A program made the translations under genes and the position numbers. DNA of 63,462 bases from IMG/VR virus record IMGVR_UViG_3300020048_000041; one strand, given 5' to 3'. Positions within the stretch are counted from its first letter, which is position 1, and every line of letters begins with the position of its first letter. Source of the stretch: an uncultured virus (IMG/VR IMGVR_UViG_3300020048_000041) (lineage: Duplodnaviria > Heunggongvirae > Uroviricota > Caudoviricetes). Below the pieces are notes generated by a model, which ran no database searches, was not told where the DNA came from, and was given only the letters and a program-made list of their open reading frames with translations. Positions 1,682 to 47,516 of the stretch are shown here, one piece after another.

Positions 1682-1708
1682 AAAAAAGCCGACAATTAAG
1701 CCGGCTAA
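1682..1708 (-). terminator. Rho-independent terminator ending the DNA-modification cluster
   Basis: AGCCGGC-loop-GTCGGCT followed by a T run on the minus strand. Confidence 0.8.
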
Positions 1709-1712
1709 TTCA

Positions 1713-2252
1713 TCACGCAAATTTACTATTAATGAAGTTTAAAATCTTTTCTTGGTCAGAGAAGTTTTCATTTTTGAATTCAGTAATTAAATCCATATAG
1801 TCAAAGTTGCCTAGGATATTGCTAATCTTAGTATCCTTAGACTTTAAAAACTGCTCGGGTTGGTTACTACCGCGTTCATCATATCGACTTTGCAAGGTAG
1901 CCTTATCAGCAGAAATAACCAAAATATCAAATTGAGTATTAGGTAAGCTAGAAAAGAAGTCGTACGACTTCTGACCGGTAAGCCTATCGCCCTCAAACAT
2001 AATATTCACATCAGTTTGTTTTGCCCAATTGATAACCTCTGGCAGAGTAGCCATACTGAGGCGGTCTGTGCCGGCAAATACTTCACCTTCGTCATACTTT
2101 CCTAGGATATGTAAATTCAAATCTTTACAATATTCTGACGAAACAAGTTTAGCTTCTTCACGCCGCTCCCAAGTATAGTTTTTCATAAACTTACGAAACA
2201 AAGTAGTTTTACCGGTTCCAGGGACACCACAAACAGCAATAATTTTTCTCAT
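1713..2252 (-). CDS. P-loop nucleotide kinase of the DNA base-hypermodification type (5hmU-kinase-like)
   Basis: Walker A GVPGTGKT; LGKY, GTDRLS and FEGDRL motifs; clustered with TET/JBP and transferase genes. Confidence 0.7.
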   Translation of the reverse strand: MRKIIAVCGVPGTGKTTLFRKFMKNYTWERREEAKLVSSEYCKDLNLHILGKYDEGEVFAGTDRLSMATLPEVINWAKQTDVNIMFEGDRLTGQKSYDFFSSLPNTQFDILVISADKATLQSRYDERGSNQPEQFLKSKDTKISNILGNFDYMDLITEFKNENFSDQEKILNFINSKFA

Positions 2253-2629
2253 AATTCAGCTCTCACGTTTTCTTTTTCAGTAGGGGAATCTATAGCAATA
2301 ACATGTACTTTTTTACAGTAATTTATTAAGGTTTCTATTTGAATAGGATCGTCCTCAAAATGGAACTGAATATCATAACCAGACTCAATCAGCATTTCGA
2401 TAGTTCTAGCCTTATGTAGACCAGAACTAACACGAGTTTTTTCATGATATCGAATAGGATTAAAGAAGACTTGATTATAAATACCGCGTTGATGTAACAT
2501 AGTTAGCGTTGCCCGCGTTTCTTCTATAGATCTACCTGTTATAATAATATCATCTGGGTCAGGTCTAACACCGCGCAACCCTTTGCCCATATAAATAACG
2601 CCATCAATATCAAAAGTGTTAATTTGCAT
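2249..2629 (-). CDS. HAD-superfamily phosphatase (candidate inositol-phosphate phosphatase)
   Basis: motif I FDIDGVI, motif II ITGRS, Lys, motif IV FEDD; directly downstream of MIPS. Confidence 0.75.
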   Translation of the reverse strand: MQINTFDIDGVIYMGKGLRGVRPDPDDIIITGRSIEETRATLTMLHQRGIYNQVFFNPIRYHEKTRVSSGLHKARTIEMLIESGYDIQFHFEDDPIQIETLINYCKKVHVIAIDSPTEKENVRAEL

Positions 2630-2690
2630 TCATAATACCCTAAAGTTAATTTTACCATTCAATTATAACTTAATTATCTAACAAAGTAAA

Positions 2691-3968
2691 TTATCTGTAA
2701 TCGTTAACAGCTTTTTGAAATGTATACGGTAAATTTTTAGCAATTGGGTTATTTTCTTTCAATTGAGATTCAGTCATAGGCGTAATAATACGTCTGGCTA
2801 ATGCGTCACACTCAAATTTAGCATCTTCAATTTTCATTTGAACCGGCGGTGTTTTTTGAGTAATATGAGAAGCACCGCGTAAGAAACCAACGATACCTAA
2901 CTCAGCAGCCACTTTACAAAATCTAATAGCAGATACAACAACCGCACCGGAATTAGGAGAATCTTGAACTGATAATCTAGCAGTTAATTCATATCTAGCA
3001 CCGGCAAACCCGTAAGCTACAATATCAATATTGGCAATTTTATTATCAGAACCGACATAAGTTCCTCCTGGTTTTTGAATAACGGTTAAAGATGGACCAG
3101 CATATAAAGTCATTCCATCAATAGAAGTATTTCGAACACTATTTTGACCTTTCAATACATTTTCTTTAGAAATATGTTTAGATTCTAATCGGTCAGTTTT
3201 AGCCATATTTAAGAAATCGGTGTTAGCCGTTCTACCGGTACGGATATTTTCTTGACCTTGCGTAGTGCCAGCTGCCATATTCATTTGGATATGTTGAGTA
3301 ACTAATAATCCCGCGTCAAGCATACCGCCTTGTAAAATCTCAGATAAACGTGAAGCACCGAACCCAGAACGCATATCAGAACCAACAATAGTCAACCCTG
3401 CGTCAATAAACTTTTGTTCAACAAGTTGAGCTTCTTCAGTAGAAATAAATGTAGGAATACAGTTAACAAAATGACAGCCAGCTTTAACCGCCGCATCAAT
3501 ATAAAATTTGCTTGCTTCATGCGAGCCTACTGGAAGATAGTTAACGACGACATCAACTTTATGGTATTTTAACAATTCAACAACACGTTGAAAAGATTCA
3601 GCCGGAATAGCACCGGTTCTAAACGAAACGTTTTCTGGATAGTCTAACATATGAGGAGCCACACCATCTAACTCCGGACCAGAATAAACGATAGCGCCTT
3701 TTGGTACACATGCGTCTGAAATTTCATTAACATGATCCATAGAGCAATTTGGATTTGCTCTTAATGCTTCTTTTAGTGGTAGGTTAACTTTACGAATATC
3801 AACATCAAACCCACACACGAATTCGATATTGTTAACGGTATAGCCGCCGATATCTGGATACATTAAACCGACTGTATCATTTTGATTTTCTATATAGTAT
3901 TGAACACCTTCTACCAAAGATTTAGCGCAAGAACCAATACCTACCAATGCTACTCGTATTTTAGACAT
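2691..3968 (-). CDS. ino1: myo-inositol-1-phosphate synthase (bacterial Ino1 type)
   Basis: IRVALVGIGSCAKSLVEGV Rossmann start; VVNYLPVGS, FVNCIP, NTDFLNM, SKHISK, SDNK, DSPNSGAVV motifs. Confidence 0.9.
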   Translation of the reverse strand: MSKIRVALVGIGSCAKSLVEGVQYYIENQNDTVGLMYPDIGGYTVNNIEFVCGFDVDIRKVNLPLKEALRANPNCSMDHVNEISDACVPKGAIVYSGPELDGVAPHMLDYPENVSFRTGAIPAESFQRVVELLKYHKVDVVVNYLPVGSHEASKFYIDAAVKAGCHFVNCIPTFISTEEAQLVEQKFIDAGLTIVGSDMRSGFGASRLSEILQGGMLDAGLLVTQHIQMNMAAGTTQGQENIRTGRTANTDFLNMAKTDRLESKHISKENVLKGQNSVRNTSIDGMTLYAGPSLTVIQKPGGTYVGSDNKIANIDIVAYGFAGARYELTARLSVQDSPNSGAVVVSAIRFCKVAAELGIVGFLRGASHITQKTPPVQMKIEDAKFECDALARRIITPMTESQLKENNPIAKNLPYTFQKAVNDYR

Positions 3969-4109
3969 TTATTTTTCCTTTACATATCAGTTTTTTTATA
4001 GTTTTTAATAGACTAAGGGCAGAATATTTGGCTCGTTAGAGGTAGCTGCCCAAAACTAGATTCAATTATACCTTTTGGTTCCTCAAAAGTAAAGTATTTT
4101 GTTTAAAGA

Positions 4110-4979
4110 TTAAAAGAAATCAGATTCTGCTCCGTCAGGAGCATTTTGAAGATACGTGCTATATTTAATAGATTCATACCGCATAACTTTTTTCAGTTGA
4201 AGTTTAGGCTTTATTTGTAAATCATAACAATTAGCCTTTTCGTTAAAATTAGGCTCATCTTTATAATATTTAGAAATAATAGGATCTTCTAATAACCTTT
4301 TGCATACATATAATGTATGGTTTAATCTATTATCAGAATCATCTCTACACCCAGAAGATTGCATACCGCCCTGTAGCGTTCCATAGTTTATATTAGCCAA
4401 CAGCCAGTTTAAATTAGCAATCTTTTTGTCTTTCTCTAAAAAATATGATGTTATAACGTTATCATCACCATGCCCAACTAATGCTTTTGATTGTTTATCG
4501 TTAAACATAGCATTAAACGCACATGTTATTTTATACGGTTTCATTTCTAAAAATGGAGAGTTTTGTTTGAATAACATATTTGACGCAAAATTTACGCTTA
4601 ATGCAGAAACATTTTGTTCGTTCATTTTAGAGAATGCATAATCAAACACCCCAATAAAATCTAAAGGTATTATTTCTTTTGGCAATGCTGAATGTTTCAG
4701 CATTTGCATATTGGAAATATCATCGTCCATAAAGACCAAAGGTTCACCGTCAGGAAAGTAATCGATAGCAGCATTTCTTGCTACATTAGCGCCTAATCCA
4801 GATATTATGACATCTTTAATAGGATAAGTATCAATAACAGTTTTATACTTAATTTGTTCATCTTTGTTGGCTAACACTAAATGAATTTCAAATTTTTCAT
4901 CATATACTTTCATCAACTCAGCTAAGGTTTTCTTTTGAATTGAATCTGCCCTATCAAATGTTCTTATTACAATTTTCAT
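4110..4979 (-). CDS. GT-A fold glycosyltransferase (TET/JBP-associated type)
   Basis: N-terminal IVIRTFDR, G...ARN, FMDDD (DxD), GDD, GGMQ motifs; gene context. Confidence 0.7.
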   Translation of the reverse strand: MKIVIRTFDRADSIQKKTLAELMKVYDEKFEIHLVLANKDEQIKYKTVIDTYPIKDVIISGLGANVARNAAIDYFPDGEPLVFMDDDISNMQMLKHSALPKEIIPLDFIGVFDYAFSKMNEQNVSALSVNFASNMLFKQNSPFLEMKPYKITCAFNAMFNDKQSKALVGHGDDNVITSYFLEKDKKIANLNWLLANINYGTLQGGMQSSGCRDDSDNRLNHTLYVCKRLLEDPIISKYYKDEPNFNEKANCYDLQIKPKLQLKKVMRYESIKYSTYLQNAPDGAESDFF

Positions 4980-6190
4980 AATTTAATATAATGTTTCGGT
5001 GTGGTTAATATATCTGTTTTAAACGTAGAAATGTTATTGGTCAAATATGGAACAACAAGATTATCATCAGTCCATATTTCAGTTACCTTATTTCTATTTG
5101 CATCCTCTCCAAGCAAATTATAAACATTAGGCATATCATCATATAATTCATTCATATTTAACATCATATTGAATTCACCAAAAATAGAATTATACCAATT
5201 TACATAAGTGCAACCTTTAATATATCCTGGTTGCGTGCGTAAGGCTAACCTAAATTTTGTCCAATCAATTTCTGGCCAGTGTTCTCTGTAATATAGGTAT
5301 CTACTTGTAGCATCTCCTGAAGCATGACCGGCGTATTCTTTTGAATGATTATCATTGAATAGCCGTTTATATTGACACCAAATTGATTCCTTGCGAAAAG
5401 AATCAATTTTAAACCCCGCATTTTCTTCTGCTAACCTTGTATATTCCATTAATGCTTCTCTAGAATATTCAACATCTTTGTCAGATATTACATAAGAACC
5501 GTACTTACCCACCATTTTATCAGGGCGGTTTTCATACGCGCAAAGTCCATTCCATATAGATTGTAAAGAAGAATCATTATTTGGAGAATACCCATCTATC
5601 ATAATATCTTTAGGATCGATAGGTAATTCTAACAAATCATGTAATGCCTGTAAACACAACCAACCAGTCATTCTACCAAATTTATACAATTTTAAAATTT
5701 CAGAGTACATCGCATAAAAATTTTGTTTCTCGTTATCATGAACTAAAATTTTTTTGAATTTAGACTCAAAGGTATCTGTACCCAACCATTCTTTAACCGA
5801 CTTAACTTGAGAAGCAAAATGCCCTTTATTATATCTAGCATCTGTCCCGTATGATGTGCGTTTCCAGTTATTTGTGTTCCATTCTTCAAATTCTTCTATA
5901 GTATGTTCATGAACATACTTAAAAGTTTCAGCATAAGCAAATGCTTGTGGTGTTCTGTATGTCATACCGAAAAGCATAGCGAACCATGCTTTTCTTTCAT
6001 AATCATAATCTGAACACAGCGTTCTCATATAATGAGTGTGATCAAGATCGTGCGTCAGTATTCTCCAATTAAAATACCTATTGAATAACTCCTTTCTATT
6101 TTCTGGAGATTTCCAATCTGTAAGGGTTTGGACAACATCTCCAGAAAATTCATTCAAAAAATATGAGTTTTTAGCCAATTCTAAAGACAT
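4976..6190 (-). CDS. aGPT-Pplase / amino-acid:DNA transferase-like protein (HhH-glycosylase fold)
   Basis: FGRMTGWLCLQAL HhH-like segment, ESIWCQYK, TDARY; lies between the TET/JBP and kinase genes. Confidence 0.6.
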   Translation of the reverse strand: MSLELAKNSYFLNEFSGDVVQTLTDWKSPENRKELFNRYFNWRILTHDLDHTHYMRTLCSDYDYERKAWFAMLFGMTYRTPQAFAYAETFKYVHEHTIEEFEEWNTNNWKRTSYGTDARYNKGHFASQVKSVKEWLGTDTFESKFKKILVHDNEKQNFYAMYSEILKLYKFGRMTGWLCLQALHDLLELPIDPKDIMIDGYSPNNDSSLQSIWNGLCAYENRPDKMVGKYGSYVISDKDVEYSREALMEYTRLAEENAGFKIDSFRKESIWCQYKRLFNDNHSKEYAGHASGDATSRYLYYREHWPEIDWTKFRLALRTQPGYIKGCTYVNWYNSIFGEFNMMLNMNELYDDMPNVYNLLGEDANRNKVTEIWTDDNLVVPYLTNNISTFKTDILTTPKHYIKL

Positions 6191-7596
6191 TAAAAGAATT
6201 CCTCTAAGGATACACTTTCATAGGCGTTTTTAAGCCAAGGGTGATACTTATCTAACCATTCATTTCCATTAGGCTGAGCCTTTAGATAATCGTACCATTC
6301 TTTAGCTTTAGAATAATCGCCATCTTTAGCTTCATGGTCTGCCCACATTCCTGGAGTAATACCGTTCCATCTAAACCGTTGGTCTTTATGGTCTGGGTCA
6401 TTTTTTCTAGATTCAACGAAATTGAACCGGCAATCTTCGTAGTCGTAAGAACCTAAGTTTAACATATTTTCTCTGAAGTAACAAATAATAGAAACCCGCT
6501 CAGCTAAGTCGTCATTTTTAACGATAGGCGTGTTACCATGCATAACTTCATGATTATTAACAAGTAACAAATCTAGAGGTCTAACGCTAACCGCGATTCT
6601 GTATTCTGGAAATACTAGATAGCCGCCAGAATAGTTATCATTAACAGATAACACTAGCAAATTAGATAAGCCTTCATTCAAATCGCCGGCGTCATAATGA
6701 GCCGCCGTTCTAAAGGTATTATTCACTGTTAATGTAGTAAATACCGTGCCTGGAACCAAAAACTTTTCATCAATTTTATCAGCTGCCGCTTTTTGATTAC
6801 CCCAGCGCCATGGTAATAAGGTTTTAAACCCTTTGTTCAAAGACTGGATAAAAGGGAAACATTTTTTGAATTTATCAAACTGATAATTTGTATATGATGT
6901 TGGTCTACCATATGGAATTCTAGGGTATCTATCAAACCAACCTGCTATACCAGAATTACATGGAACAGCATAGTTTGTAGTAGAAATGAATTCTTTAGCA
7001 ACCATTTCAGCTTCAGCTTTAGCCGCTTCACGCGGTAACTTAGAAGTCGCTTCAGCCCACTCATCAAAATTAAATCCTTCAGGTAATTTAGAAGGCAACC
7101 AAACCTGGCAACGAATTTCATTATCAACATAATGAGCATTTTTGATTTTATCAAACTCATCACCTTCATTATACAAATCGTCAATAGGATTAATGAAGTA
7201 ATCTAAAATAGCATGTTCTTTAGGTTTAACCCTAATACGACCAGAGTTATCGCTAAATGTACCATCAATATTACCTGTATTTTGAAACGTACCGGCGGCA
7301 AGACCTCTGTTATTAGATGACGTGGCAGCATCTTTTAAACCCTCATACGCCCAGTCGTGCTCTTCTTTACTGAAGAAGTTTTTTCTAAATTTGAACGCAA
7401 TACGCAGTTCGTCTTGACCTTTATCGCATGAGCTACAATCTGATTCACAATCTACCTGTGTAGATAAATCACACATAGCAGGCATATAACAGTCGGTATC
7501 TTCTTCAACCAAAATATCGTAATGAGATTCATCAAGAAATCTACCCAATAGGTGCTCACAATCTAGTTTAGATTTGGCAACAATAACATTAACCAT
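6190..7596 (-). CDS. TET/JBP-family 2OG-Fe(II) dioxygenase
   Basis: FTTLTVN.TFRTAAHYDAGD (HxD), GGYLVFPEY, MHGNTPI (H), RVSIICYFRE (R). Confidence 0.85.
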   Translation of the reverse strand: MVNVIVAKSKLDCEHLLGRFLDESHYDILVEEDTDCYMPAMCDLSTQVDCESDCSSCDKGQDELRIAFKFRKNFFSKEEHDWAYEGLKDAATSSNNRGLAAGTFQNTGNIDGTFSDNSGRIRVKPKEHAILDYFINPIDDLYNEGDEFDKIKNAHYVDNEIRCQVWLPSKLPEGFNFDEWAEATSKLPREAAKAEAEMVAKEFISTTNYAVPCNSGIAGWFDRYPRIPYGRPTSYTNYQFDKFKKCFPFIQSLNKGFKTLLPWRWGNQKAAADKIDEKFLVPGTVFTTLTVNNTFRTAAHYDAGDLNEGLSNLLVLSVNDNYSGGYLVFPEYRIAVSVRPLDLLLVNNHEVMHGNTPIVKNDDLAERVSIICYFRENMLNLGSYDYEDCRFNFVESRKNDPDHKDQRFRWNGITPGMWADHEAKDGDYSKAKEWYDYLKAQPNGNEWLDKYHPWLKNAYESVSLEEFF

Positions 7597-7663
7597 AATT
7601 CAAATTCCTCTTATAAAAATAATAATTATACTTTAAACCCGTTTCAAAGTAAAGGTATTTAGA

Positions 7664-9457
7664 CTAAAATTTGAATCCATTCGTTTCAATTCGTTTAGTT
7701 TTAGCTTGAAACCCGTTATTTGTATCAACAGTACCCGCGCCGGATATATTATGCTGAGCAGAGCTTTCAACATCAAACAATCTCATCTTACTTCTATCTA
7801 TACCGATAGTGAAACGCTTATAATAGGAAATGTCATTATATCTATTTTTCAACTGCTTAACCATAATCTGACCCATTTCTTCTAACTCTTCAGTAGACAT
7901 TAAGCCTATGAATAAATCTAACGTATGGGCGATACCTATAGATTCACTGACATTAGTTAAATCCATATCGGTAGAAGTCTGTCCTTCACGATTAGGCTGA
8001 GTCGCGGTGACAACCGGAACATTATACTCAACCGCTAACCCGCGCAACTCTTCAGCAATAGATTTAATCAACATATAAGAATTAACACCGCTACCGTATT
8101 TCATTCTTTGAGACGCACAAATATTCAAATAATCTATACAGATGAGGTCAGGCTTGAAGTTCTTTTTACCCTTTAACTCCTCAAGCAAAACTCTAAAATG
8201 ACCAGCATGAGCTGATGACGTCGGATATTCTTTGATGATTAATTTACCGGTCGTCTTTTCCATCAACCTTTGAATCCTAGTTTCAAATACAGGTCGTTCA
8301 ACAGTTTTCAACTCCGTTATAGGGATATTCAAAAGATTAGCATCGATACGTTCAGCAATACGTTCTTCAGACATTTCCATTGTAATATATAGAACATTTT
8401 TACCCTGTGCCATAGTAGCCGCCGCAATATGACACATCGCTAAAGATTTACCAACGCCCGTGTTATGAGAAGAAACCCCATTTGTATAGTACCTATGGTT
8501 ATCATGGTCAACCGTAATATCAACGATAGGAATCAACTCACCAGTTTCAACAATATAGCCGCTGACTAAACCTTTATCTGTATGAAAGTTTACTGTTTGG
8601 TCTACAAGGTCTTTAGCATAATACCAACCTGCCTGAGTTTCAAACAAATGAATCTCATTACATCTAACAGTATCGCCGTTAGATAACGTAAGGACATACT
8701 CATCCCAAAAACCTTTATCCACAAAATTCGATACGTTAACCCAACCATCAGGGGATGTTACCTCAATTTTATAATCTAATAACAATTTTTTAACATCACC
8801 AATAGCGATATGCCTTTCAGCAACCCAACCCTGTTTACTGGTAATCCTAACTGAAATAGACGTATCAGGATGAACGCAACCTGCTAAGAAACAATTTAAC
8901 GTTTTAAGGCTTAACCCGCCGCCCGTAATTTTATTCATCAACTCTAAGTCAAACGGAATTTTAGTTTCAACGTTATGATAATGGTCGTATCGTTCAGAGT
9001 AATCTAAAATGTAATCATGACCAACATTTGTATCAAAAGATACCGCTAACGCATCAGATAAGATAGACGGAATAGCATCTTCACGAAACTGTTTATCCTT
9101 ACCCTCAATTATCTTAATAGAATGTAATATGGCACCATAAACTGCTTTATCTTTACAGAATTTTTCAGTTTCAAGTAATAACCATTCATCATTAATATCT
9201 TTATGTTCAATTTTAGATACAAGCGCCGTTAACTCAGTTAATTCTTTATCATTAATATCAGTTCTGTTTCTGATTTCAATATCAAGAATCTGCGGTGTAA
9301 TAATCTTATTAAACTTGGTAAAGTATTCACCAATTTCGTTAACAAGAATAGATTCTATCCTATCGGTAAAATATTCTTTTTTAATGAAAGGTAAGGTTTT
9401 TCTAGTAAACTCTTCATTGTAAATCAGATTAGAAATAATAATATCTTCAATTCGCAT
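7664..9457 (-). CDS. 41: replicative DNA helicase gp41, intein-containing
   Basis: LAG|TGVGKS Walker A after intein removal; VLYITMEM, IDYLNI, TATQ.NR, SESIG, KQLKNRY. Confidence 0.95.
   Translation of the reverse strand: MRIEDIIISNLIYNEEFTRKTLPFIKKEYFTDRIESILVNEIGEYFTKFNKIITPQILDIEIRNRTDINDKELTELTALVSKIEHKDINDEWLLLETEKFCKDKAVYGAILHSIKIIEGKDKQFREDAIPSILSDALAVSFDTNVGHDYILDYSERYDHYHNVETKIPFDLELMNKITGGGLSLKTLNCFLAGCVHPDTSISVRITSKQGWVAERHIAIGDVKKLLLDYKIEVTSPDGWVNVSNFVDKGFWDEYVLTLSNGDTVRCNEIHLFETQAGWYYAKDLVDQTVNFHTDKGLVSGYIVETGELIPIVDITVDHDNHRYYTNGVSSHNTGVGKSLAMCHIAAATMAQGKNVLYITMEMSEERIAERIDANLLNIPITELKTVERPVFETRIQRLMEKTTGKLIIKEYPTSSAHAGHFRVLLEELKGKKNFKPDLICIDYLNICASQRMKYGSGVNSYMLIKSIAEELRGLAVEYNVPVVTATQPNREGQTSTDMDLTNVSESIGIAHTLDLFIGLMSTEELEEMGQIMVKQLKNRYNDISYYKRFTIGIDRSKMRLFDVESSAQHNISGAGTVDTNNGFQAKTKRIETNGFKF
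8462..8878 (-). mobile_element. mini-intein (139 aa) in the gp41 Walker A motif
   Basis: begins CVHPDT, block B CNEIHLF, ends YYTNGVSSHN followed by Thr; no LAGLIDADG domain. Confidence 0.95.
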
Positions 9458-9467
9458 ATCAGTCCTG

Positions 9468-9749
9468 TTAAGCTTTAATGTTTTCAATTCCTGTGGTAAT
9501 AATATCAACCAAAATATCACCAATCATTTTCTTAAATGTCATTAAATCATCTTCAGGAATATACCCTTCTTGTAAAATGTAATTAAATTCTAGCATACCA
9601 CCATCCTCATCTGGTATCTCAACGAATTTTACATCATCATATGTAAGTACACAATAGATAGATTCATTTTCTGTTAAAAAGTCAAACTCGATTGCGGTAA
9701 CTTCAGCGCCGGTTTTATCGATATAATTTATTGCTTGGTAATTTATCAT
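9468..9749 (-). CDS. acidic hypothetical protein at the position of T4 gp40
   Basis: ORF between uvsX and 41; assignment by synteny only. Confidence 0.5.
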   Translation of the reverse strand: MINYQAINYIDKTGAEVTAIEFDFLTENESIYCVLTYDDVKFVEIPDEDGGMLEFNYILQEGYIPEDDLMTFKKMIGDILVDIITTGIENIKA

Positions 9750-9821
9750 AATGTTCCCATAAAATGAAAATAGCGTATAACGAATTAACATTATACGCTT
9801 TTGTTTCTAGAAAGTAAAGTT

Positions 9822-10892
9822 TTAGATTTCAGTATCGATATCTTCTAATTCATCAACAATGCTGTCATCTGATATCATTTGACCACAAGCAATTTTATAG
9901 GTATCTTCAATCCAAGATCTAAATTTAACCTGCTTTAATACCGGCAACCAAAACTCTTTATTGTTAGTTTCTTTAGCGCGATATTTCTTTTCTTCTAACT
10001 CACCAGTATCTAAATTCACTTTTTGATACCAGCCGTTGCTAGGTTTAATAACCGCGCCGGATTCTAACGCAATATCTAATAAACCAGACCAAGTAGAAAT
10101 ACCGCCGTCCCAAGAAACAGTAATAGGAATCTTAGATTTTTCTTTAACAAATCGTGATTTTTCAATGTTAATGACAAAATTATACCCTACGACTTCAGTG
10201 CCTTCTTTTTCTTGCTGACGACCAATAATCCAGATTGTTGACGCAGAATAATAAATACCAGTGCCGCCTGATACAACCGCTTTACTATACATTTCTTGTG
10301 TATCGTATGTATGGTTGATAGCAATTAACGGAATATCTTTAGTGGTCAAGTATGGAGTAACCATACGGAAAAGAGATTTTAACTGTTTAGCACGAGACAT
10401 ATCTGCTACTGATTTTTCATTCATAGCATCCTCAACTTCTTTTTTAGAAGCTAAGTTACCTATTGAATCAATAATGATAATAACCTTATCGTTTCGTTCG
10501 ATATTTTTCATTTGTGCCATAATATCGAATTTAAGTTCTTCAACGTCCATAATAGGTGTATGAAGAACACGACTGGTGTCAATACCAAATGAACTGAAGT
10601 AAGCTTGAGGAGAACCAAACTCAGAATCATAAAAAAGTAAGACTGATTCTGGGTATTTGTCAAGATAGCTTTTCGCCATCACTAACGAAAATGATGTTTT
10701 AAAATGTTTAGATTTACCGGCTATAACGAATAATGAAGGAGTTAACCCGCCGTCTAATGAACCACTCAAAGCGATATTTAATGCTGGAACTGTAGTTTGA
10801 ACCATATCTGCTTTAGTGAAGAATTTGGATTCACTAAGAATAGCGGTTTCTTTAATAGTTGAATTTTTTTTCAGTTTTTCTAATATACTCAT
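9822..10892 (-). CDS. uvsX: RecA-like recombinase UvsX
   Basis: AGKSKHFKT, FYDSEFG, IDSIGNLASKKE, DMSRAK, SGGTGIYYSA. Confidence 0.97.
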   Translation of the reverse strand: MSILEKLKKNSTIKETAILSESKFFTKADMVQTTVPALNIALSGSLDGGLTPSLFVIAGKSKHFKTSFSLVMAKSYLDKYPESVLLFYDSEFGSPQAYFSSFGIDTSRVLHTPIMDVEELKFDIMAQMKNIERNDKVIIIIDSIGNLASKKEVEDAMNEKSVADMSRAKQLKSLFRMVTPYLTTKDIPLIAINHTYDTQEMYSKAVVSGGTGIYYSASTIWIIGRQQEKEGTEVVGYNFVINIEKSRFVKEKSKIPITVSWDGGISTWSGLLDIALESGAVIKPSNGWYQKVNLDTGELEEKKYRAKETNNKEFWLPVLKQVKFRSWIEDTYKIACGQMISDDSIVDELEDIDTEI

Positions 10893-10928
10893 AATGTTCC
10901 TTAATCAAAAATACAATTATAAATGATT

Positions 10929-11141
10929 TCAATTGAAAAGTAAAGGTCTTGTTTCTAGTATCAAAGTAGGAACTGTTGCGTCAATAGCCTTTTGGTATCT
11001 TCCATGTTTAACATCATACCCCGTATCTGTTCTAAATGGTTCTTCTTCAAACCACCACCATTCTACTGTTGCACCATAAATATCATTGCCTAAATAATTT
11101 GCCCAATCAGGAGCATCTTTCCAGTGTGGTTTATTTGTCAT
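10929..11141 (-). CDS. hypothetical protein (W.DAP.WA.YL family; paralogue at 59913-60131)
   Basis: KPHWKDAPDWANYL versus KPKWEDAPNWARYL; both end in ETRP. Confidence 0.65.
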   Translation of the reverse strand: MTNKPHWKDAPDWANYLGNDIYGATVEWWWFEEEPFRTDTGYDVKHGRYQKAIDATVPTLILETRPLLFN

Positions 11142-11161
11142 ATTACCTTGTGTGATTAAAA

Positions 11162-11184
11162 TGGCTGGGCTTTACACCCAGCCA
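11162..11184 (-). terminator. hairpin terminator
   Basis: TGGCTGGG-N7-CCCAGCCA followed by TTTT on the minus strand. Confidence 0.7.
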
Positions 11185-11190
11185 CAAACA

Positions 11191-11520
11191 TTAATTGATA
11201 TAGTGATTCAATTCGTAAGGATTTGTATTTGTACCGCGATTATAAACTTGGATATGCAAAGCTTTTTTGCTTGGTTTACCATCTTTTTCAAGCGCTAAAC
11301 TGTGACGAGTAGTTTCACCGTCTTTAGGCTTACCTGGACCAACAGTAATTTTGTCGTGCCATTCGTCATCTGGAATGGTGTAACCTTTAGCGTTAGCTTG
11401 CGCTTGAGCATGTTGAACTGCTGAAGTATATGTTGAGTGATGAAGAATGCTCGTATCTTTTTTCGCTTCGTTCAAAGCTTCTTCTAATACTGATTCTCTA
11501 AATTCTTGGAATGCTGACAT
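11191..11520 (-). CDS. putative internal head protein with capsid-targeting-like N-terminus
   Basis: MSAFQEFRESVLEEALNEA resembles the T4 IP CTS (MKTYQEFIAE). Confidence 0.6.
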   Translation of the reverse strand: MSAFQEFRESVLEEALNEAKKDTSILHHSTYTSAVQHAQAQANAKGYTIPDDEWHDKITVGPGKPKDGETTRHSLALEKDGKPSKKALHIQVYNRGTNTNPYELNHYIN

Positions 11521-11529
11521 TTTGTTTCC

Positions 11530-12012
11530 TTACAGTTTGGTGTATCCAGAGGACGTTTTAAAATAAAAGGCGTTTCTTGTAGTTGACACTTGTTTAAGAA
11601 CATTATCAGTAAACGGCGCCAATACAACTTCTACCATTTTTAACATTGAAATATAAATTTCATCAGGATCGATAAAATCTAAATGGTATTCATGCTCTGC
11701 TTCAATGTATTGATATATATCCCAGAAAGAGTCATTTAAGCCGTACTGTTCAAATTCTTTATACAAGTTTTCAAACCAAATTTCGTGTACTCTTCCAGCA
11801 TATTCTTTATATAGCTCTTTATATTTTTCGAGTTCCTTCTCATTAATAACAACTTCTTCAATAATCCCTCCGTGAGCTTCAGCCGCATCCTTTGAATCAA
11901 AACAAGTCAGTATCCTATTTACAGAACAAACCCAGTTTAATATAGGCTCAACCTCAGCCGGCTCTTCACCGGCTAACTTTATACATTGTTCAAATGGTAG
12001 GTGTTTATGCAT
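11530..12012 (-). CDS. hypothetical protein
   Basis: 160-aa ORF in operon. Confidence 0.6.
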   Translation of the reverse strand: MHKHLPFEQCIKLAGEEPAEVEPILNWVCSVNRILTCFDSKDAAEAHGGIIEEVVINEKELEKYKELYKEYAGRVHEIWFENLYKEFEQYGLNDSFWDIYQYIEAEHEYHLDFIDPDEIYISMLKMVEVVLAPFTDNVLKQVSTTRNAFYFKTSSGYTKL

Positions 12013-17370: not shown

Positions 17371-18261
17371 ATGGATTTAAATAATACTGGATACAACGGC
17401 AACCGAAATTTAAAGCAGGTTGGGTTACCAATTGAGTTCACCGCAGAGCGACTCGAAGAATACATTAAATGTAAAAACGATCCTGTCTACTTCATAATAA
17501 CATACTGTAAGGTTGTTTCGTTAGACAGAGGATTTGTTAATTTTGACTTGTATGAATACCAACAAAGATTCATCAACGCTATTCATACAAATAGAAAGGT
17601 CGCTGGAATGTTCAGTCGCCAGCAGGGTAAAACAACAACATCTGCTGCTTACATATTACATTACGTTACATTTAACGACCATAAAACGGTTGCGATTTTG
17701 GCTAATAAAAGCGCCGCCGCCCGTGAAGTTATGAGCAGAATACAGCTCATGTTTGAAGCCTTACCTATATGGCTTCAACAGGGAATTAAGACTTGGAATA
17801 AAGGTGACATTGAATTAGAAAACGGATCTAAGATTTTCACTTCTGCTACAACAGGATCTGGTATTCGTGGTAAATCTGTTAACATGTTATACATTGATGA
17901 GATTTCATCAATTGCTAATACGATTGCTGAAGAGTTTTTCACGTCAACTTACCCCGTTATTTCTTCTGGTAAAGATACCAAAATTTTGATGACGTCAACC
18001 CCAATTGGTTATAACTATTGGTGGAAAGTATGGAACGAAGCTGAAAATGGAATAAATGGCTTTTTACCCTTTAAGGCAGAATGGCACGAACACCCTGAAC
18101 GTGATGAAAAGTGGGCAGCTGAACAAAAGGCGTTTCTTGGTGAAGTTAAATTTAATCAAGAAGTATTATGCGTTGGAAAAGACACATTAATAACAGTAAA
18201 GGATAAAGATACAGGTGAAGTTATTACGTTGACTATTGGAGAATTATATGCTAAAATGTGA
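17371..18261 (+). CDS. 17: terminase large subunit gp17, N-terminal part (ATPase) fused to a 30-aa IntN
   Basis: SRQQGKTT Walker A, ILANK, LYIDE Walker B, TSTPIG; ends NQEVL|CVGKDTLI...ELYAKM. Confidence 0.95.
   Translation: MDLNNTGYNGNRNLKQVGLPIEFTAERLEEYIKCKNDPVYFIITYCKVVSLDRGFVNFDLYEYQQRFINAIHTNRKVAGMFSRQQGKTTTSAAYILHYVTFNDHKTVAILANKSAAAREVMSRIQLMFEALPIWLQQGIKTWNKGDIELENGSKIFTSATTGSGIRGKSVNMLYIDEISSIANTIAEEFFTSTYPVISSGKDTKILMTSTPIGYNYWWKVWNEAENGINGFLPFKAEWHEHPERDEKWAAEQKAFLGEVKFNQEVLCVGKDTLITVKDKDTGEVITLTIGELYAKM
18169..18258 (+). mobile_element. split intein N-fragment (IntN, 30 aa)
   Basis: block A CVGKDTLITV followed by TIGELY and a stop. Confidence 0.9.
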
Positions 18262-19060
18262 AAATGTTTATTTTACTTATCTGATTGGGTGGAGTAAATT
18301 AGATGTTTGGTATTATGGTGTTAGATACAAAGATAAGTCACCACCAGAAACGTTATGGGTAAATTATTTTACATCATCAAAATATGTTACACAATATAGA
18401 ATAGAATATGGTGAACCTGACGTCATACAGATTAGAAAAACATTTACAAACAAAAAATTAGCTAAAAACTGGGAAGATAAAGTTCTTCGTCGAATGAATG
18501 TACAGTCTACCCCTAAATGGTTAAACAAATCAAATAATAATTCATTTTATAATGTAACTGGAGACGCCGATATAGGAAAGGCGATATCGAACGGAATAAA
18601 AAAATCTAAAAAAGGTGTGAAAGGTAAAAAGTGTTACAACAATGGTTTAGAAAATAAATTTTTTACATGTGGAACAAATCCTGACGGTTGGGTAAAGGGT
18701 AAACTGCAGTCAGAACAAAATAAAGCACATATGAAAAAACTAAATTCTGAAGTATTAACAAAGGAAAAAAGATTAGAATCTGGTAAAAAGCATTCTTTAA
18801 AAACTAAAGGTAAGCCTAAACCTTCTGATTTTGGTAAAAAGGTAAGTGAAGCAACTAAAGGTAAATTTAAGCCACATATGATAGGTGATAATAACGTTTC
18901 ACGTAGACCTGATGTCAGAGAAAAAATATCAAACAAAATGAAAGGTAGAAAATTTTTTACTGATGGTTTTAAATTGTATTTTGTTAAACCAGATATAGGT
19001 GAAAAAAATGGATGGATTTTGACATCAACAAATGAATTTAAAACATATGAAAATAAATAA
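18248..19060 (+). CDS. GIY-YIG (Seg-like) homing endonuclease between the split-intein halves
   Basis: FTYLIG...YYGVR, YFTSS, WLNKS, Lys-rich NUMOD-like C-terminus; overlaps both flanking genes. Confidence 0.8.
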   Translation: MLKCENVYFTYLIGWSKLDVWYYGVRYKDKSPPETLWVNYFTSSKYVTQYRIEYGEPDVIQIRKTFTNKKLAKNWEDKVLRRMNVQSTPKWLNKSNNNSFYNVTGDADIGKAISNGIKKSKKGVKGKKCYNNGLENKFFTCGTNPDGWVKGKLQSEQNKAHMKKLNSEVLTKEKRLESGKKHSLKTKGKPKPSDFGKKVSEATKGKFKPHMIGDNNVSRRPDVREKISNKMKGRKFFTDGFKLYFVKPDIGEKNGWILTSTNEFKTYENK

Positions 19061-19352
19061 CAGATTTGATATTTTAACACCTACAGGGTTTCAACATTTT
19101 TTAGGGATAAAAGAATCGATAAAAGAAACCTTAAAATTTATTTTTGATGATTTATCTGATATTGTTGTTACTCCAGACCATAGGTTTATTTCTAATGAAG
19201 TAGAAATAACAGCAAATACATTATCCGTAAATGATGTTATATGTGGAAAAATTATTGTTGATATTATACAAAATGGGATACAAACTGTATATGATCCAAT
19301 TGAAGTTTTAAACGGTAACGCCTACATATCAAACGATTTGGTCTCGCATAAT
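19047..19352 (+). mobile_element. split intein C-fragment (IntC, ~102 aa)
   Basis: block B TPDH, terminal HN followed by Cys+1. Confidence 0.9.
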
Positions 19353-20141
19353 TGCCATTTCCTCGGTTCTGCGAACACATTAATTGACGCAACGACACTA
19401 GGATCGTTATCTCCTAAGCCGTTTGTGTACTCAACGCCAGAAGGTTTAGACATCCTAGAAAAGCCTACACCAAACCATTTTTACGCTTTAGTAGCAGACA
19501 CCTCTGAGGGAGTCGGTGGGGACTTCTCAGCGTTCGTTCTAATTGATATTACCGTTTATCCGTTTAAATTGGTAGCTAAGTATAAAAACAATAAGATTAG
19601 TCCTATGTTATATCCTAACGTAATACACAAAGTTGCTTTAGAATATAACAACGCCTATGTTTTGATTGAGATTAATAAATCTCAAGAAGTCGCTATGATA
19701 TTGTATGATGAATACGAATACGAAAATATGATATCAGTTAAACGAGGGACGAAGGGACAAGTGCCAGTTGACGGTGGATACAGCAAAGGTTTATTAGGCG
19801 TTACCACTGATAAAAAAGTTAAACGTCAGGGATGTCAAGCCTTAAAATCTTTGATGGAAGAAAAGAAATTACTGATTTTTGATACAGACGTTATCGGTGA
19901 ATTCACTACCTTTATCGAGAAAAATGGCTCGTTTGCCGGCGATTCTGGTGCTCATGATGATTTGGTGATGTGTTTAGTATTATTTGGATGGTTAACATCA
20001 AGTGAATATTTTAAAGATATGACTAATATGGATACAAGAAAAGAATTATATTCTGCGCATATGGATATGATTGAATCATCTATGCTACCTGTTGGATGGT
20101 TAGTTGATGGCACAGAACAACCGCAATATGTAAATTTTTAG
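19047..20141 (+). CDS. 17: IntC fused to terminase gp17 C-terminal nuclease part
   Basis: ILTPTGF...TPDHRF...VYDPIEV...VSHN|CHFLGSANTLI; DTSEGVGGDFS, IEIN, HDDLVM nuclease motifs. Confidence 0.95.
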   Translation: MKINNRFDILTPTGFQHFLGIKESIKETLKFIFDDLSDIVVTPDHRFISNEVEITANTLSVNDVICGKIIVDIIQNGIQTVYDPIEVLNGNAYISNDLVSHNCHFLGSANTLIDATTLGSLSPKPFVYSTPEGLDILEKPTPNHFYALVADTSEGVGGDFSAFVLIDITVYPFKLVAKYKNNKISPMLYPNVIHKVALEYNNAYVLIEINKSQEVAMILYDEYEYENMISVKRGTKGQVPVDGGYSKGLLGVTTDKKVKRQGCQALKSLMEEKKLLIFDTDVIGEFTTFIEKNGSFAGDSGAHDDLVMCLVLFGWLTSSEYFKDMTNMDTRKELYSAHMDMIESSMLPVGWLVDGTEQPQYVNF

Positions 20142-27130: not shown

Positions 27131-27904
27131 ATGACCAGCACAAGTATTTATACTCCTATCACACCCACCTATCTCTACATCAAACAGCATTCCATAACCG
27201 GCTTAAAGTATTTCGGTAAGACCACTCGAGATCCATACAAATACAATGGTTCTGGTAAGCACTGGTCTAGACACATCAATAAACATGGTAAAGAACACAT
27301 CGTTACTCTTTGGGTTTCTGACTTGTATCACGACACATCAATTGTCGAGGTTGCCTTAAAATTTTCTGCTGATAACGATATCGTCAAATCTAAAGAATGG
27401 GCGAACCAAAAACCAGAAAATGGATTAGATGGAGGTGCCTCTGGCACAAAACATACACAAGAAACCAAAAACAAAATATCTGCATCTAACAAAGGTAAAC
27501 CACTTTCAGAAGAACATAAAACCAAACTATCTGTCTCACAAAAAGGCAGAAAACACACAGATGAAACTAAAGCCAAACAATCTGCTAGTGCAAAAGGTAA
27601 AAAACACACAGAAAAAACTAAAGCTAAAATGCGTAAGCCTAGATCAGATGAAACCAAAGCCAAAATATCTGCTACTCTAACAGGCAAAAAACGTGGTCCT
27701 CAATCAGATGAAACCAAAGCCAAAATATCTGCATCTAACAAAGGTAAACCTAGAAAACCTCAATTAGAAGAATCTAATGCTAAACGATCTGCTACTATGA
27801 CGGGTGTCTCTAAACCAGAATTTTTTTCAATAATTGAAAATAGAAAGACTTATGGTAAATCACATCTTTCTAGATATTATCCTGAATTTAAGCAGTACTA
27901 TTAG
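27131..27904 (+). CDS. GIY-YIG homing endonuclease with NUMOD3 repeats (copy A)
   Basis: YLYIKQH..TGLKYFGKT, YNGSGKHW, WAN..PENG; repeated H(T/S)xETKAK(I/Q)S units. Confidence 0.85.
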   Translation: MTSTSIYTPITPTYLYIKQHSITGLKYFGKTTRDPYKYNGSGKHWSRHINKHGKEHIVTLWVSDLYHDTSIVEVALKFSADNDIVKSKEWANQKPENGLDGGASGTKHTQETKNKISASNKGKPLSEEHKTKLSVSQKGRKHTDETKAKQSASAKGKKHTEKTKAKMRKPRSDETKAKISATLTGKKRGPQSDETKAKISASNKGKPRKPQLEESNAKRSATMTGVSKPEFFSIIENRKTYGKSHLSRYYPEFKQYY

Positions 27905-46853: not shown

Positions 46854-47516
46854 ATGACCAGCACAATTATTTATACCGCAATAGATCCCACCTACCTCTA
46901 CATCAAACAGCATTCCATAACCGGCTTAAAGTATTTCGGTAAGACTACCGGAAACCCATACAAGTACAATGGTTCAGGTAAACGCTGGAAATCTCATATC
47001 AAAGTTCATGGCAAAAAACATATTAAGACCATTTGGGTTTCAGAAGTCTACACAGACACATCTATCACTGAGTTTGCCTTAAAGTTTTCTATAGAAAACG
47101 ATATTGTCAATTCTAAAGAATGGGCTAACCTAATTATGGAAAACGGGTTAGATGGGTGTCCTTTTGGTGAGAAACATACAGAAGAAACTAAAGCCAAACA
47201 ATCTGCTAGTAAAAAAGGTAAAAAACGTGGTCCTCATACAGAAGAAACTAAAGCCAAACAATCTGCTAGTGCAAAAGGTAAAAAACGTTCAGAAGAATCT
47301 AAGGCTAAACAATCTGTTACTATGACAGGCGTTCATCAATCAGAAGAAACTAAAGCCAAACGTTCTACTACTTTGACTGGTATTCCGCGTTCAGAAGAAA
47401 CAAAAACAAAACTAAGAGTTCCTAAGCCAGAGTTTTTCTCAATAATAAAAACTAGAAAAACTTATAATATACAAGGACTTTCCAGATATTATCCTGAATT
47501 TAAACAACATTTTTAG
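46854..47516 (+). CDS. GIY-YIG homing endonuclease with NUMOD3 repeats (copy B)
   Basis: near-identical N-terminus to copy A; shared C-terminal LSRYYPEFKQ. Confidence 0.85.
   Translation: MTSTIIYTAIDPTYLYIKQHSITGLKYFGKTTGNPYKYNGSGKRWKSHIKVHGKKHIKTIWVSEVYTDTSITEFALKFSIENDIVNSKEWANLIMENGLDGCPFGEKHTEETKAKQSASKKGKKRGPHTEETKAKQSASAKGKKRSEESKAKQSVTMTGVHQSEETKAKRSTTLTGIPRSEETKTKLRVPKPEFFSIIKTRKTYNIQGLSRYYPEFKQHF

Follow-up and report, generated by a model that had tools for sequence, protein, structure and literature searches.

Positions 1713 to 7596 of the DNA analysed here, a 63,462-nucleotide stretch from an uncultured T4-like phage (IMG/VR record IMGVR_UViG_3300020048_000041) which in its full length is called the window below, carry six genes that on balance probably form a cassette for post-replicative hypermodification of thymidine, with a cyclitol donor that the phage would make itself. 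Homology and gene linkage are the basis from which all steps of the pathway were derived. We likewise infer inositol as the attached group, an action of the glycosyltransferase on this inositol, and evasion of restriction as the purpose. An inositol-bearing DNA base would accordingly be a candidate structure that nobody has yet shown chemically. All six open reading frames (ORFs) lie on the minus strand and point in one direction, and the coordinates given for them in an earlier sequence-only reading of the window agree exactly with the ORF list:

6190..7596, minus strand, TET/JBP-type Fe(II)/2-oxoglutarate dioxygenase, 468 aa (TET468), assigned by Pfam Tet_JBP
4976..6190, minus strand, amino-acid:DNA transferase (AADT) family protein, formerly aGPT-Pplase2, 404 aa (ADDT404), assigned by PF18724
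4110..4979, minus strand, GT-A fold glycosyltransferase, TAGT-like, 289 aa (GT289), assigned by its fold and the TAGT matches of its family
2691..3968, minus strand, myo-inositol-1-phosphate synthase (MIPS) homologue, 425 aa (MIPS425), assigned by PF01658 and 1gr0
2249..2629, minus strand, minimal capless HAD phosphatase, 126 aa (HAD126), assigned by its motifs and phrog_415
1713..2252, minus strand, P-loop kinase of the Ploopntkinase3 kind, 179 aa (kin179), assigned by AAA_18, AAA_33 and, at the level of its family, PF18751

In the proposed pathway the TET/JBP enzyme would hydroxylate thymine in the phage DNA to 5-hydroxymethyluracil (5hmU), which the small P-loop kinase would convert to 5-phosphomethyl-dU. 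MIPS would turn glucose-6-phosphate into myo-inositol-1-phosphate, and the paired HAD phosphatase would strip the phosphate to give myo-inositol. The AADT, by means of Cys272 and Glu268, would then expel the phosphate from the activated base and leave an exocyclic methylene, to which an inositol hydroxyl would add, resulting in an ether-linked 5-(inosityl-oxymethyl)uracil. In a last step the GT-A enzyme would add a sugar, with the inositol or unreacted 5hmU as its acceptor. The order could equally well be another one, in which the attachment of inositol phosphate comes first and its dephosphorylation on the DNA follows, by the capless HAD protein, which is similar to the phosphatase of polynucleotide kinase (PNK). 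Protection of the phage DNA from host nucleases is the likely purpose of the pathway.

The gene identities on which this pathway is built were all proposed in the sequence-only reading and all of them hold, including the two that were weakest at the outset, namely the glycosyltransferase (GT-A fold, DxD, homologues that match TAGT) and the HAD phosphatase (four motifs). TET468 scored 81.7 bits against Tet_JBP (PF12851; cutoff 34.9 bits) and 464 bits against phrog_24024, with no match among the PDB sequences, and its iron triad and 2-oxoglutarate arginine (H300-x-D302, H353 and R367-x-S369) are invariant in 12/12 homologues. The enzyme is predicted to hydroxylate the C5-methyl group of thymine in DNA, and phage T-dioxygenases with this activity have been demonstrated experimentally, according to the available text of the report (PNAS 2026, PMC13229309). 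TET homologues also occur in Stenotrophomonas phage DLP6 and in phage C48C1, in other contexts and without MIPS; the accessible part of the DLP6 paper holds no usable statement on DNA modification.

Whether thymine or 5-methylcytosine (5mC) is the base modified had been left undecided, and the choice now leans to thymine. A C5 methylase (PF00145) was not found in Caulobacter phage Cr30, which has the same six genes, nor in three IMG/VR relatives scanned as whole genomes (G001 and G002, complete with terminal repeats, and G003, 73% complete), and on this indirect evidence 5mC was rejected as the likely substrate. A ThyA-family hydroxymethylase (PF00303) was not found in G001, G002 or G003 either, and the ThyA-family content of Cr30 consists of a canonical ThyA only (373 bits). 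Neither a C5 methylase nor a hydroxymethylase was found among 94/112 window ORFs of at least 60 aa, the window being part of a genome of about 164 kb. Because no C5 methylase was found, and because the kinase appears to be related to kinases of 5-hydroxymethyldeoxyuridine (5-hmdU) and accompanied by an AADT, thymine is the likely substrate.

The kinase itself, kin179, matches the generic Pfam families AAA_18 and AAA_33, and its matches among the PDB sequences were at the level of the P-loop only. The more specific family Ploopntkinase3 (PF18751) is matched by 8/8 members of the kinase family, with a best E-value of 1.8e-18, and by the window protein itself at 17.5 bits, which is below the cutoff. 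When the family profile was aligned by hhalign to gp54 of phage M6, the probability was 73% (E 3e-5, 122 columns), and BLASTP of kin179 alone against M6 gp54 aligned only the P-loop. M6 gp54 is a proven 5-hmdU DNA kinase, and kin179 is predicted to be a kinase of the same kind.

ADDT404 matches PF18724 with 122.4 bits, where the cutoff is 26.2, and the domain is present in 74/74 homologues; no match was found among the PDB sequences, and the identity to ViI-type proteins is about 22%. Its Glu268 and Cys272 align with the E-T-x-x-C motif of M6 gp51 in a local alignment and are kept in 23/24 aligned rows, the sole row without the pair being a clade-1 paralogue. As far as the available text of Lee et al. 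2021 (PMC8989533) goes, mutagenesis of M6 gp51 and ViI gp247 found a cysteine and a glutamate close to it to be essential in AADTs, their chemistry passes through an exocyclic methylene intermediate that accepts outside nucleophiles, and ViI gp247 joins serine through its hydroxyl group, which sets a precedent for a hydroxyl nucleophile. From the alignment, Glu268 and Cys272 are inferred to be the published essential pair of M6 gp51, and ADDT404 is predicted to exchange the phosphate of 5-phosphomethyl-dU for a nucleophile on DNA. In an AADT tree of 23 rows, the branches of M6 gp51 and a ViI-type protein are very long and fall outside the MIPS-linked sequences, and two sequences from loci devoid of MIPS stand next to MIPS-linked ones, L115 as sister to L129 and L148 as sister to the second AADT subclade. 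A label test on this tree, with its two outgroups and seeded sample, gave 500/500 shuffles that were equally good, and the tree was not used as evidence.

The feature that sets the cluster apart is the pair of MIPS and HAD genes. MIPS425 scored 34.4 bits against Inos-1-P_synth (PF01658) and 369 bits against phrog_33138. To Ino1 of Mycobacterium tuberculosis (1gr0) it aligns in full length with 192 bits (residues 3-385), sharing the N-terminal glycine-rich motif and the SK..SK, DNK and DSPNS motifs, and the match to the MIPS homologue Ari2 (6k96) is weaker, at 108 bits. Residues K264, K268, D308-N309-K310, D336, S337, N339, S340 and K372, presumably catalytic, are invariant in four phage MIPS homologues. 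MIPS425 differs from Ino1 in a sub-equivalog score, in two insertions, in having a tiny HAD protein as partner and not a phosphatase of the inositol monophosphatase type, and in lying inside phage DNA-modification clusters. By its sequence MIPS425 is an enzyme of the MIPS family, with a product that the equivalog model does not certify.

HAD126 found no Pfam, NCBIfam or PDB sequence match, and was assigned by its motifs, the DxD, S/T, K and DD motifs of HAD phosphatases: D7, D9, G10, V11, G32-R33, K73 and D93-D94 are the same in 30/30 sequences, T31 and E92 in nearly all of them. It matches phrog_415 (E 1.7e-9) and resembles the phosphatase of T4 PNK. Its AlphaFold2 model has a pLDDT of 90.8, and the Foldseek neighbours of the model are acid phosphatase IIIB, the T4 PNK 3'-phosphatase and lipin/Nir2, all of them weak (best E 2.8e-3, TM about 0.6); a protein-atlas search with HAD126 agrees with these neighbours.

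GT289 falls below the cutoff of the TAGT family (PF20691), with 23 against 27.5 bits over the N-terminal 97 residues only, and TAGT is matched by 43/60 rows of an alignment of GT289 with 59 of its 300 homologues (best E 1.4e-13); the protein is classed as TAGT-like, not as a TAGT member, by these scores. The TAGT family includes the base J glucosyltransferase. In the DxD region D86 and D87 are invariant and D85 is nearly invariant over the 60 rows. No useful match was found among the PDB sequences. The AlphaFold2 model (pLDDT 96.6) has a GT-A fold, and Foldseek returned 177 matches with E-values not exceeding 0.001, of which the best were to GT-A fold enzymes, led by TarP, TarS and RmlT (E about 2e-6, TM 0.42-0.48) and including SpsA, a likeness at the level of the fold. 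TarP, TarS and RmlT glycosylate ribitol-phosphate teichoic acid. The predicted role of GT289 is that of an accessory tailoring enzyme.

The sequence-only reading had left it to relatives to show whether MIPS homologues keep company with these genes. The question was followed both outward from MIPS and outward from AADT, and the linkage held. All counts given here are of contigs and not of independent lineages, as near-duplicates occur, the two sets have some contigs in common, and linked loci were the source of the search patterns. Starting from MIPS, the best 80 (71-100% identity) of 442 confirmed IMG/VR relatives were surveyed. The HAD gene adjoins MIPS in 78/80; in the two exceptions the contig breaks off at MIPS or directly behind it. 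TET, AADT or kinase genes are present in 18/80, and another, non-homologous cassette is found in 55/80, which has a protein with PF18723 (5-hmdU DNA kinase helical domain) and a protein of about 335 aa belonging to no family; a thymidylate-synthase-like gene occurs in 42/80, and a C5 methylase is frequent too. Both cassettes together were found in 0/80. Of the remaining seven contigs, three are short, and the other four combine a DpdA-like gene with FolE or QueC.

Starting from AADT, the clade of the window protein comprises 78 IMG/VR contigs, with MIPS directly downstream in 71, HAD in 67, TET in 63 and the kinase in 55; three of the seven without MIPS end early. Among the accessory genes in the flanks examined, a GT-A enzyme is present in 10 of the 78 contigs, a GT-B enzyme in 9, an FkbM-type methyltransferase in 9, and none of these in 50. 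A phage genome collection holds an AADT-like gene in 346 records and MIPS in only 19, so MIPS is specific to the AADT clade of the window and is not a general AADT companion. At the nucleotide level the cluster had no Megablast match in 50,697 phage records. At the protein level Caulobacter phage Cr30 (L001) has all six genes in the order of the window, with identities of 43% for TET, 63% for AADT, 23% for the glycosyltransferase, 41% for MIPS, 57% for HAD and 41% for the kinase. Since PF01658 was not found in a Caulobacter control genome, Cr30 must supply its own inositol; laboratory E. coli likewise has no MIPS by this control. In Ralstonia phage RP13 (L002) the MIPS-HAD pair lies between genes for HMUDK_hel (162 bits) and HMUD2, and in Stenotrophomonas phages of the genus Menderavirus it lies within a FolE/QueC/DpdA/QueE cluster. 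Stenotrophomonas phage Moby (L003, 6207-11621) has a MIPS-HAD deazaguanine cluster between uvsX and gp41; in L022-L024 such a cluster stands just after these two genes, and L027 is a further case.

The second cassette (L010-L083, for example L068 at 6535-11769) is composed of the thymidylate-synthase-like gene, DUF6552, MIPS, HAD, the PF18723 protein and the protein of about 335 aa, often with a C5 methylase. No P-loop was found in the consensus of its PF18723 protein. The protein of about 335 aa has an invariant G-D-S-H motif; it was tried as a distant AADT and rejected, as the hhalign probability was 0.5% and no PDB match was found. Because a MIPS that is 87% identical to MIPS425 serves this other, PF18723-containing cassette, the MIPS product looks like a common diffusible small-molecule donor.

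How the cassette varies was seen most directly in near-identical relatives. In L004, L005, L008 and L097 the flanks have a DNA identity to the window of 97-98% (across MIPS and, in L004, across TET and gp41), and these loci lack window positions 3980-6181, which hold GT289 and ADDT404. In their place they carry an AADT of another subclade, 28-30% identical to ADDT404, and L097 in addition has a GT-B enzyme at the swapped region and a kinase that is only 61% identical. A complete extra ORF of 424 aa, without an assigned family, lies between MIPS and HAD in L005, L008 and L097; in L004 only its start is seen before the contig ends. The edges of the swap coincide with gene boundaries. In these loci the hydroxylase and donor modules are kept, and it is the transferase and tailoring modules that have been swapped. 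In L115 and L152 (about 4790-9924) the AADT, HAD and kinase genes are kept and MIPS is replaced by a radical S-adenosylmethionine (radical-SAM) enzyme, an FkbM methyltransferase, DUF2284 and a class II aldolase-like protein. Another donor is suggested by this exchange.

Several observations weigh against the proposed pathway. The score of MIPS425 against TIGR03450 is 218 bits, far under the Ino1 equivalog cutoff of 638; an insertion of 15 aa, common to MIPS425 and the RP13 protein, sits beside a conserved motif; and Ari2, although a MIPS homologue, makes a different, five-membered cyclitol. The link of the kinase to M6 gp54 is moderate at 73%. Characterised AADTs all use glycine, serine or putrescine, as far as the available text of PMC8989533 describes them. 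The linkage counts are weakened by the near-duplicate contigs and by the derivation of the search patterns from linked loci. Furthermore, L115, L152, L148 and L149 have enough flank and contain AADT without MIPS, and in L148 and L149 the cassette is reduced to TET and AADT. Finally, MIPS-HAD is also found in FolE/QueC/DpdA clusters for 7-deazaguanine, which show no sign of hydroxymethyl or AADT chemistry and to which the proposed mechanism cannot be carried over unchanged, so that MIPS-HAD may be a general inositol supply with another use.

Part of this evidence could also be accommodated in the same framework with a different donor, which might be a glycosyl-inositol, another cyclitol phosphate, or an inositol phosphate kept as such on the DNA. 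We regard this as rather unlikely. In mycothiol synthesis, by Ino1, MshA and a phosphatase, a glycosyl-inositol is built on inositol phosphate and then dephosphorylated, and a MIPS gene beside a glycosyltransferase and a phosphatase mirrors this logic; a GT-B enzyme (PF00534) stands at the same position in relatives, and both the activity of Ari2 and the insertion near the conserved motif of MIPS425 would fit a product other than myo-inositol. However, the 50/78 AADT contigs that have neither glycosyltransferase nor methyltransferase in the flanks examined indicate that the core works without them, MIPS425 is much nearer to Ino1 than to Ari2 by the bit scores given above, and the GT-B protein of L007 had no PDB sequence match, so that likeness to MshA could not be shown.

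It is less likely still that host amino acids or polyamines are what the AADT adds, in the manner of phages M6, ViI and PhiW-14, leaving MIPS-HAD as an unrelated auxiliary metabolic pair that only shares the variable region. Such an arrangement would agree with the donors of the characterised AADTs, with the position of the cluster in a variable region beside gp41 and UvsX, with the promoter-like site that MIPS has of its own, and with the occurrence of MIPS-HAD where AADT is absent. It is difficult to reconcile with a MIPS-HAD pair that lies between AADT and kinase in 71/78 contigs whose AADT identities range over 24-71%, with the presence of the pair within three kinds of DNA-modification cluster, and with the window, in which a pyridoxal phosphate (PLP) decarboxylase, a radical-SAM isomerase and a flavin adenine dinucleotide (FAD) lyase were not found. 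A polyol donor is favoured over an amino acid because the window is without these PLP, radical-SAM and FAD enzymes of adduct processing, because the variable accessory genes (GT-A, GT-B and FkbM-type methyltransferase) act on hydroxyls, and because a MIPS of 87% identity serves the other cassette.

That the main product is a glycosyl-5hmU resembling base J, formed by TET and the TAGT-like enzyme, with kinase, AADT and MIPS in a minor or separate route, appears very unlikely: the glycosyltransferase family does match TET-associated glycosyltransferases, but the gene is found in only 10/78 AADT contigs, near-identical relatives do without it, and the conserved core is TET, AADT, MIPS, HAD and kinase. 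A split polynucleotide kinase/phosphatase for nucleic-acid end repair, formed by HAD126 and kin179, was considered and rejected as scarcely credible, since the likeness of HAD126 to the T4 PNK phosphatase, the AAA_33 match of the kinase and the ATGA overlap of the two genes stand against a HAD gene that tracks MIPS (64/80 MIPS contigs have HAD without a kinase of the window type) and a kinase family that matches Ploopntkinase3 and aligns to M6 gp54.

The proposed inositol ether shares its framework with several known systems. With the thymidine hypermodification of M6, PaMx11, ViI and PhiW-14 it has in common, within the accessible text of PMC8989533, a P-loop kinase that appears related to M6 gp54, an AADT with a Glu/Cys pair, activation of the 5-hydroxymethyl group as a phosphate that is then substituted on the DNA polymer, and, in the serine of ViI, an ether-forming hydroxyl nucleophile. 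It differs from the same description in that those phages obtain 5hmU from a dUMP hydroxymethylase before replication, where the window would use a TET/JBP enzyme afterwards, and in that their donors are host amino acids or putrescine, handled with PLP, radical-SAM and FAD enzymes, where the window has MIPS-HAD and a glycosyltransferase instead. The phage T-dioxygenase (5mYOX) pathways, in the available text of PMC13229309 and in contigs 22-25 of Lee 2021, likewise have a TET/JBP enzyme beside a P-loop kinase and an AADT and no neighbouring C5 methylase. According to the same part of PMC13229309, the subclass linked to kinase and AADT needs a ParB partner, whereas the scan of the cluster genes and of neighbouring window ORFs turned up no ParB domain; inositol is mentioned 0 times in that text.

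Base J of kinetoplastids, made by JBP1/2 and the J glucosyltransferase, resembles the proposed product in the hydroxylation of thymine by a TET/JBP enzyme, in a C6H10O5 polyol on the hydroxymethyl group and in a TAGT-type GT-A enzyme. Base J is an acetal formed from UDP-glucose with neither kinase nor AADT, and the window product would be an ether to a carbocyclic polyol formed by way of a phosphate leaving group. The product predicted here and the base J nucleoside would be isomers; the calculated monoisotopic mass is 420.138 Da (C16H24N2O11, 5hmdU plus C6H10O5), or 582.19 Da with a hexose added. The mass increase of 162 Da predicted in the sequence-only reading is correct as arithmetic, but on account of this isomerism the mass would not serve as proof of inositol.

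No description of inositol on DNA was found in the literature searched, which left supplements and most subscription journals outside; the mentions of inositol in candidate papers concern glycosyltransferase homologues or an unexplained phage gene, and nothing on DNA modification of Cr30 was found in the same literature. The enzyme framework of T-dioxygenase, 5-hmdU kinase and AADT is already known, and the proposed dedicated cyclitol donor is what is new.

The signals around the six genes were as follows:

7625..7653, minus strand, promoter-like site TTTACT-17-TATAAT 5' of the TET/JBP gene (consensus match only)
4065..4093, minus strand, promoter-like site 5' of MIPS (consensus match)
2662..2690, minus strand, promoter-like site 5' of the HAD gene (consensus match)
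1687..1706, minus strand, intrinsic-terminator-like hairpin with T-run at the end of the cluster, directly after the kinase stop

The overlapping stop and start codons noted earlier were all seen in the sequence: TET and AADT share one base in TAATG at 6190, and AADT and the glycosyltransferase (4976-4979) as well as HAD and the kinase (2249-2252) overlap by ATGA. The terminator at the end of the cluster was also borne out. One uninterrupted operon was not, since gaps of 141 nt between the glycosyltransferase and MIPS genes and 61 nt between MIPS and HAD each hold a TTTACT-17-TATAAT site, the third such site being upstream of TET. Because of these gaps with their own promoter-like sites, the cluster is probably composed of three early-type transcription units and not a single operon. 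The core TTTACTTT ... TATAAT of the TET, MIPS and HAD sites is invariant with that of four intergenic repeats of this phage, and window positions 3985-4070, which overlap the MIPS site, are 94% conserved in L097. Promoter-like sites were not enriched across the region, as 33 were found and 30.9 were expected from shuffles. The four repeats, each of about 89 nt, lie further downstream at 335-423, 772-860, 1021-1109 and 1588-1676, and each carries the TTTACTTT...TATAAT promoter-like core on the minus strand, 5' of a small ORF.

The cluster is located in a region of about 34% G+C. Its neighbour gp41 was correctly named in the sequence-only reading: positions 7664-9523, immediately upstream, encode a DnaB/gp41-type helicase, beyond which lies the UvsX gene (9822-10892), so that the cluster is downstream of both. 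The helicase (minus strand) contains an insertion of about 140 aa at residues 217-356 or thereabouts, with Cys as its first residue and His-Asn at its end, followed by Thr. The insertion is missing from Moby gp41, and six loci fall in the cluster of gp41 proteins with insertion; a mini-intein is the probable explanation. For gp41 the TTG annotated as start is probably too far upstream, and Met at residue 23 seems the likelier one. Elsewhere in the window the large terminase (17371-20141, plus strand) consists of three successive ORFs, Terminase_6N, a 274-aa ORF without family, and Terminase_6C, a split that suggests a frameshift or an intervening element. NUMOD3 motifs occur in two plus-strand ORFs (27131-27904 and 46854-47516), likely homing endonucleases, which lie among minus-strand genes. 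Two of the other phages have an anti-CBASS gene within a few kb of their modification genes: in RP13 it is Acb1 (L002, 10631-11221), in Cr30 it is Acb3 (L001, 13855-14655).

Extended to the family, our reading would be that in many uncultured T4-like phages, and in Cr30 and RP13, part of the thymine carries ether-linked myo-inositol, glycosylated or O-methylated in variants, and that the donor module serves at least two unrelated attachment machineries and possibly 7-deazaguanine systems; we hold this wider statement to be about evenly balanced between true and false. The hypermodifications of phage DNA decide which restriction and CRISPR defences are escaped, and they are a source of DNA-labelling enzymes. 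Besides the amino acids, polyamines and sugars so far known on C5 of pyrimidines, a cyclitol ether would be a new class in chemical terms. If the proposal is true, this would be the first cyclitol-modified nucleobase, easily misread by mass as base J, its isomer; the AADT step would accept a donor that is not an amino acid; and the presence of inositol synthase relatives in at least 442 IMG/VR viral contigs would be explained. With all six genes in Cr30, a phage that can be grown on a laboratory strain of Caulobacter (host C. crescentus CB15), the case is directly testable. The swap of cassette parts between near-identical phages suggests that the exact decoration of the DNA is under diversifying pressure.

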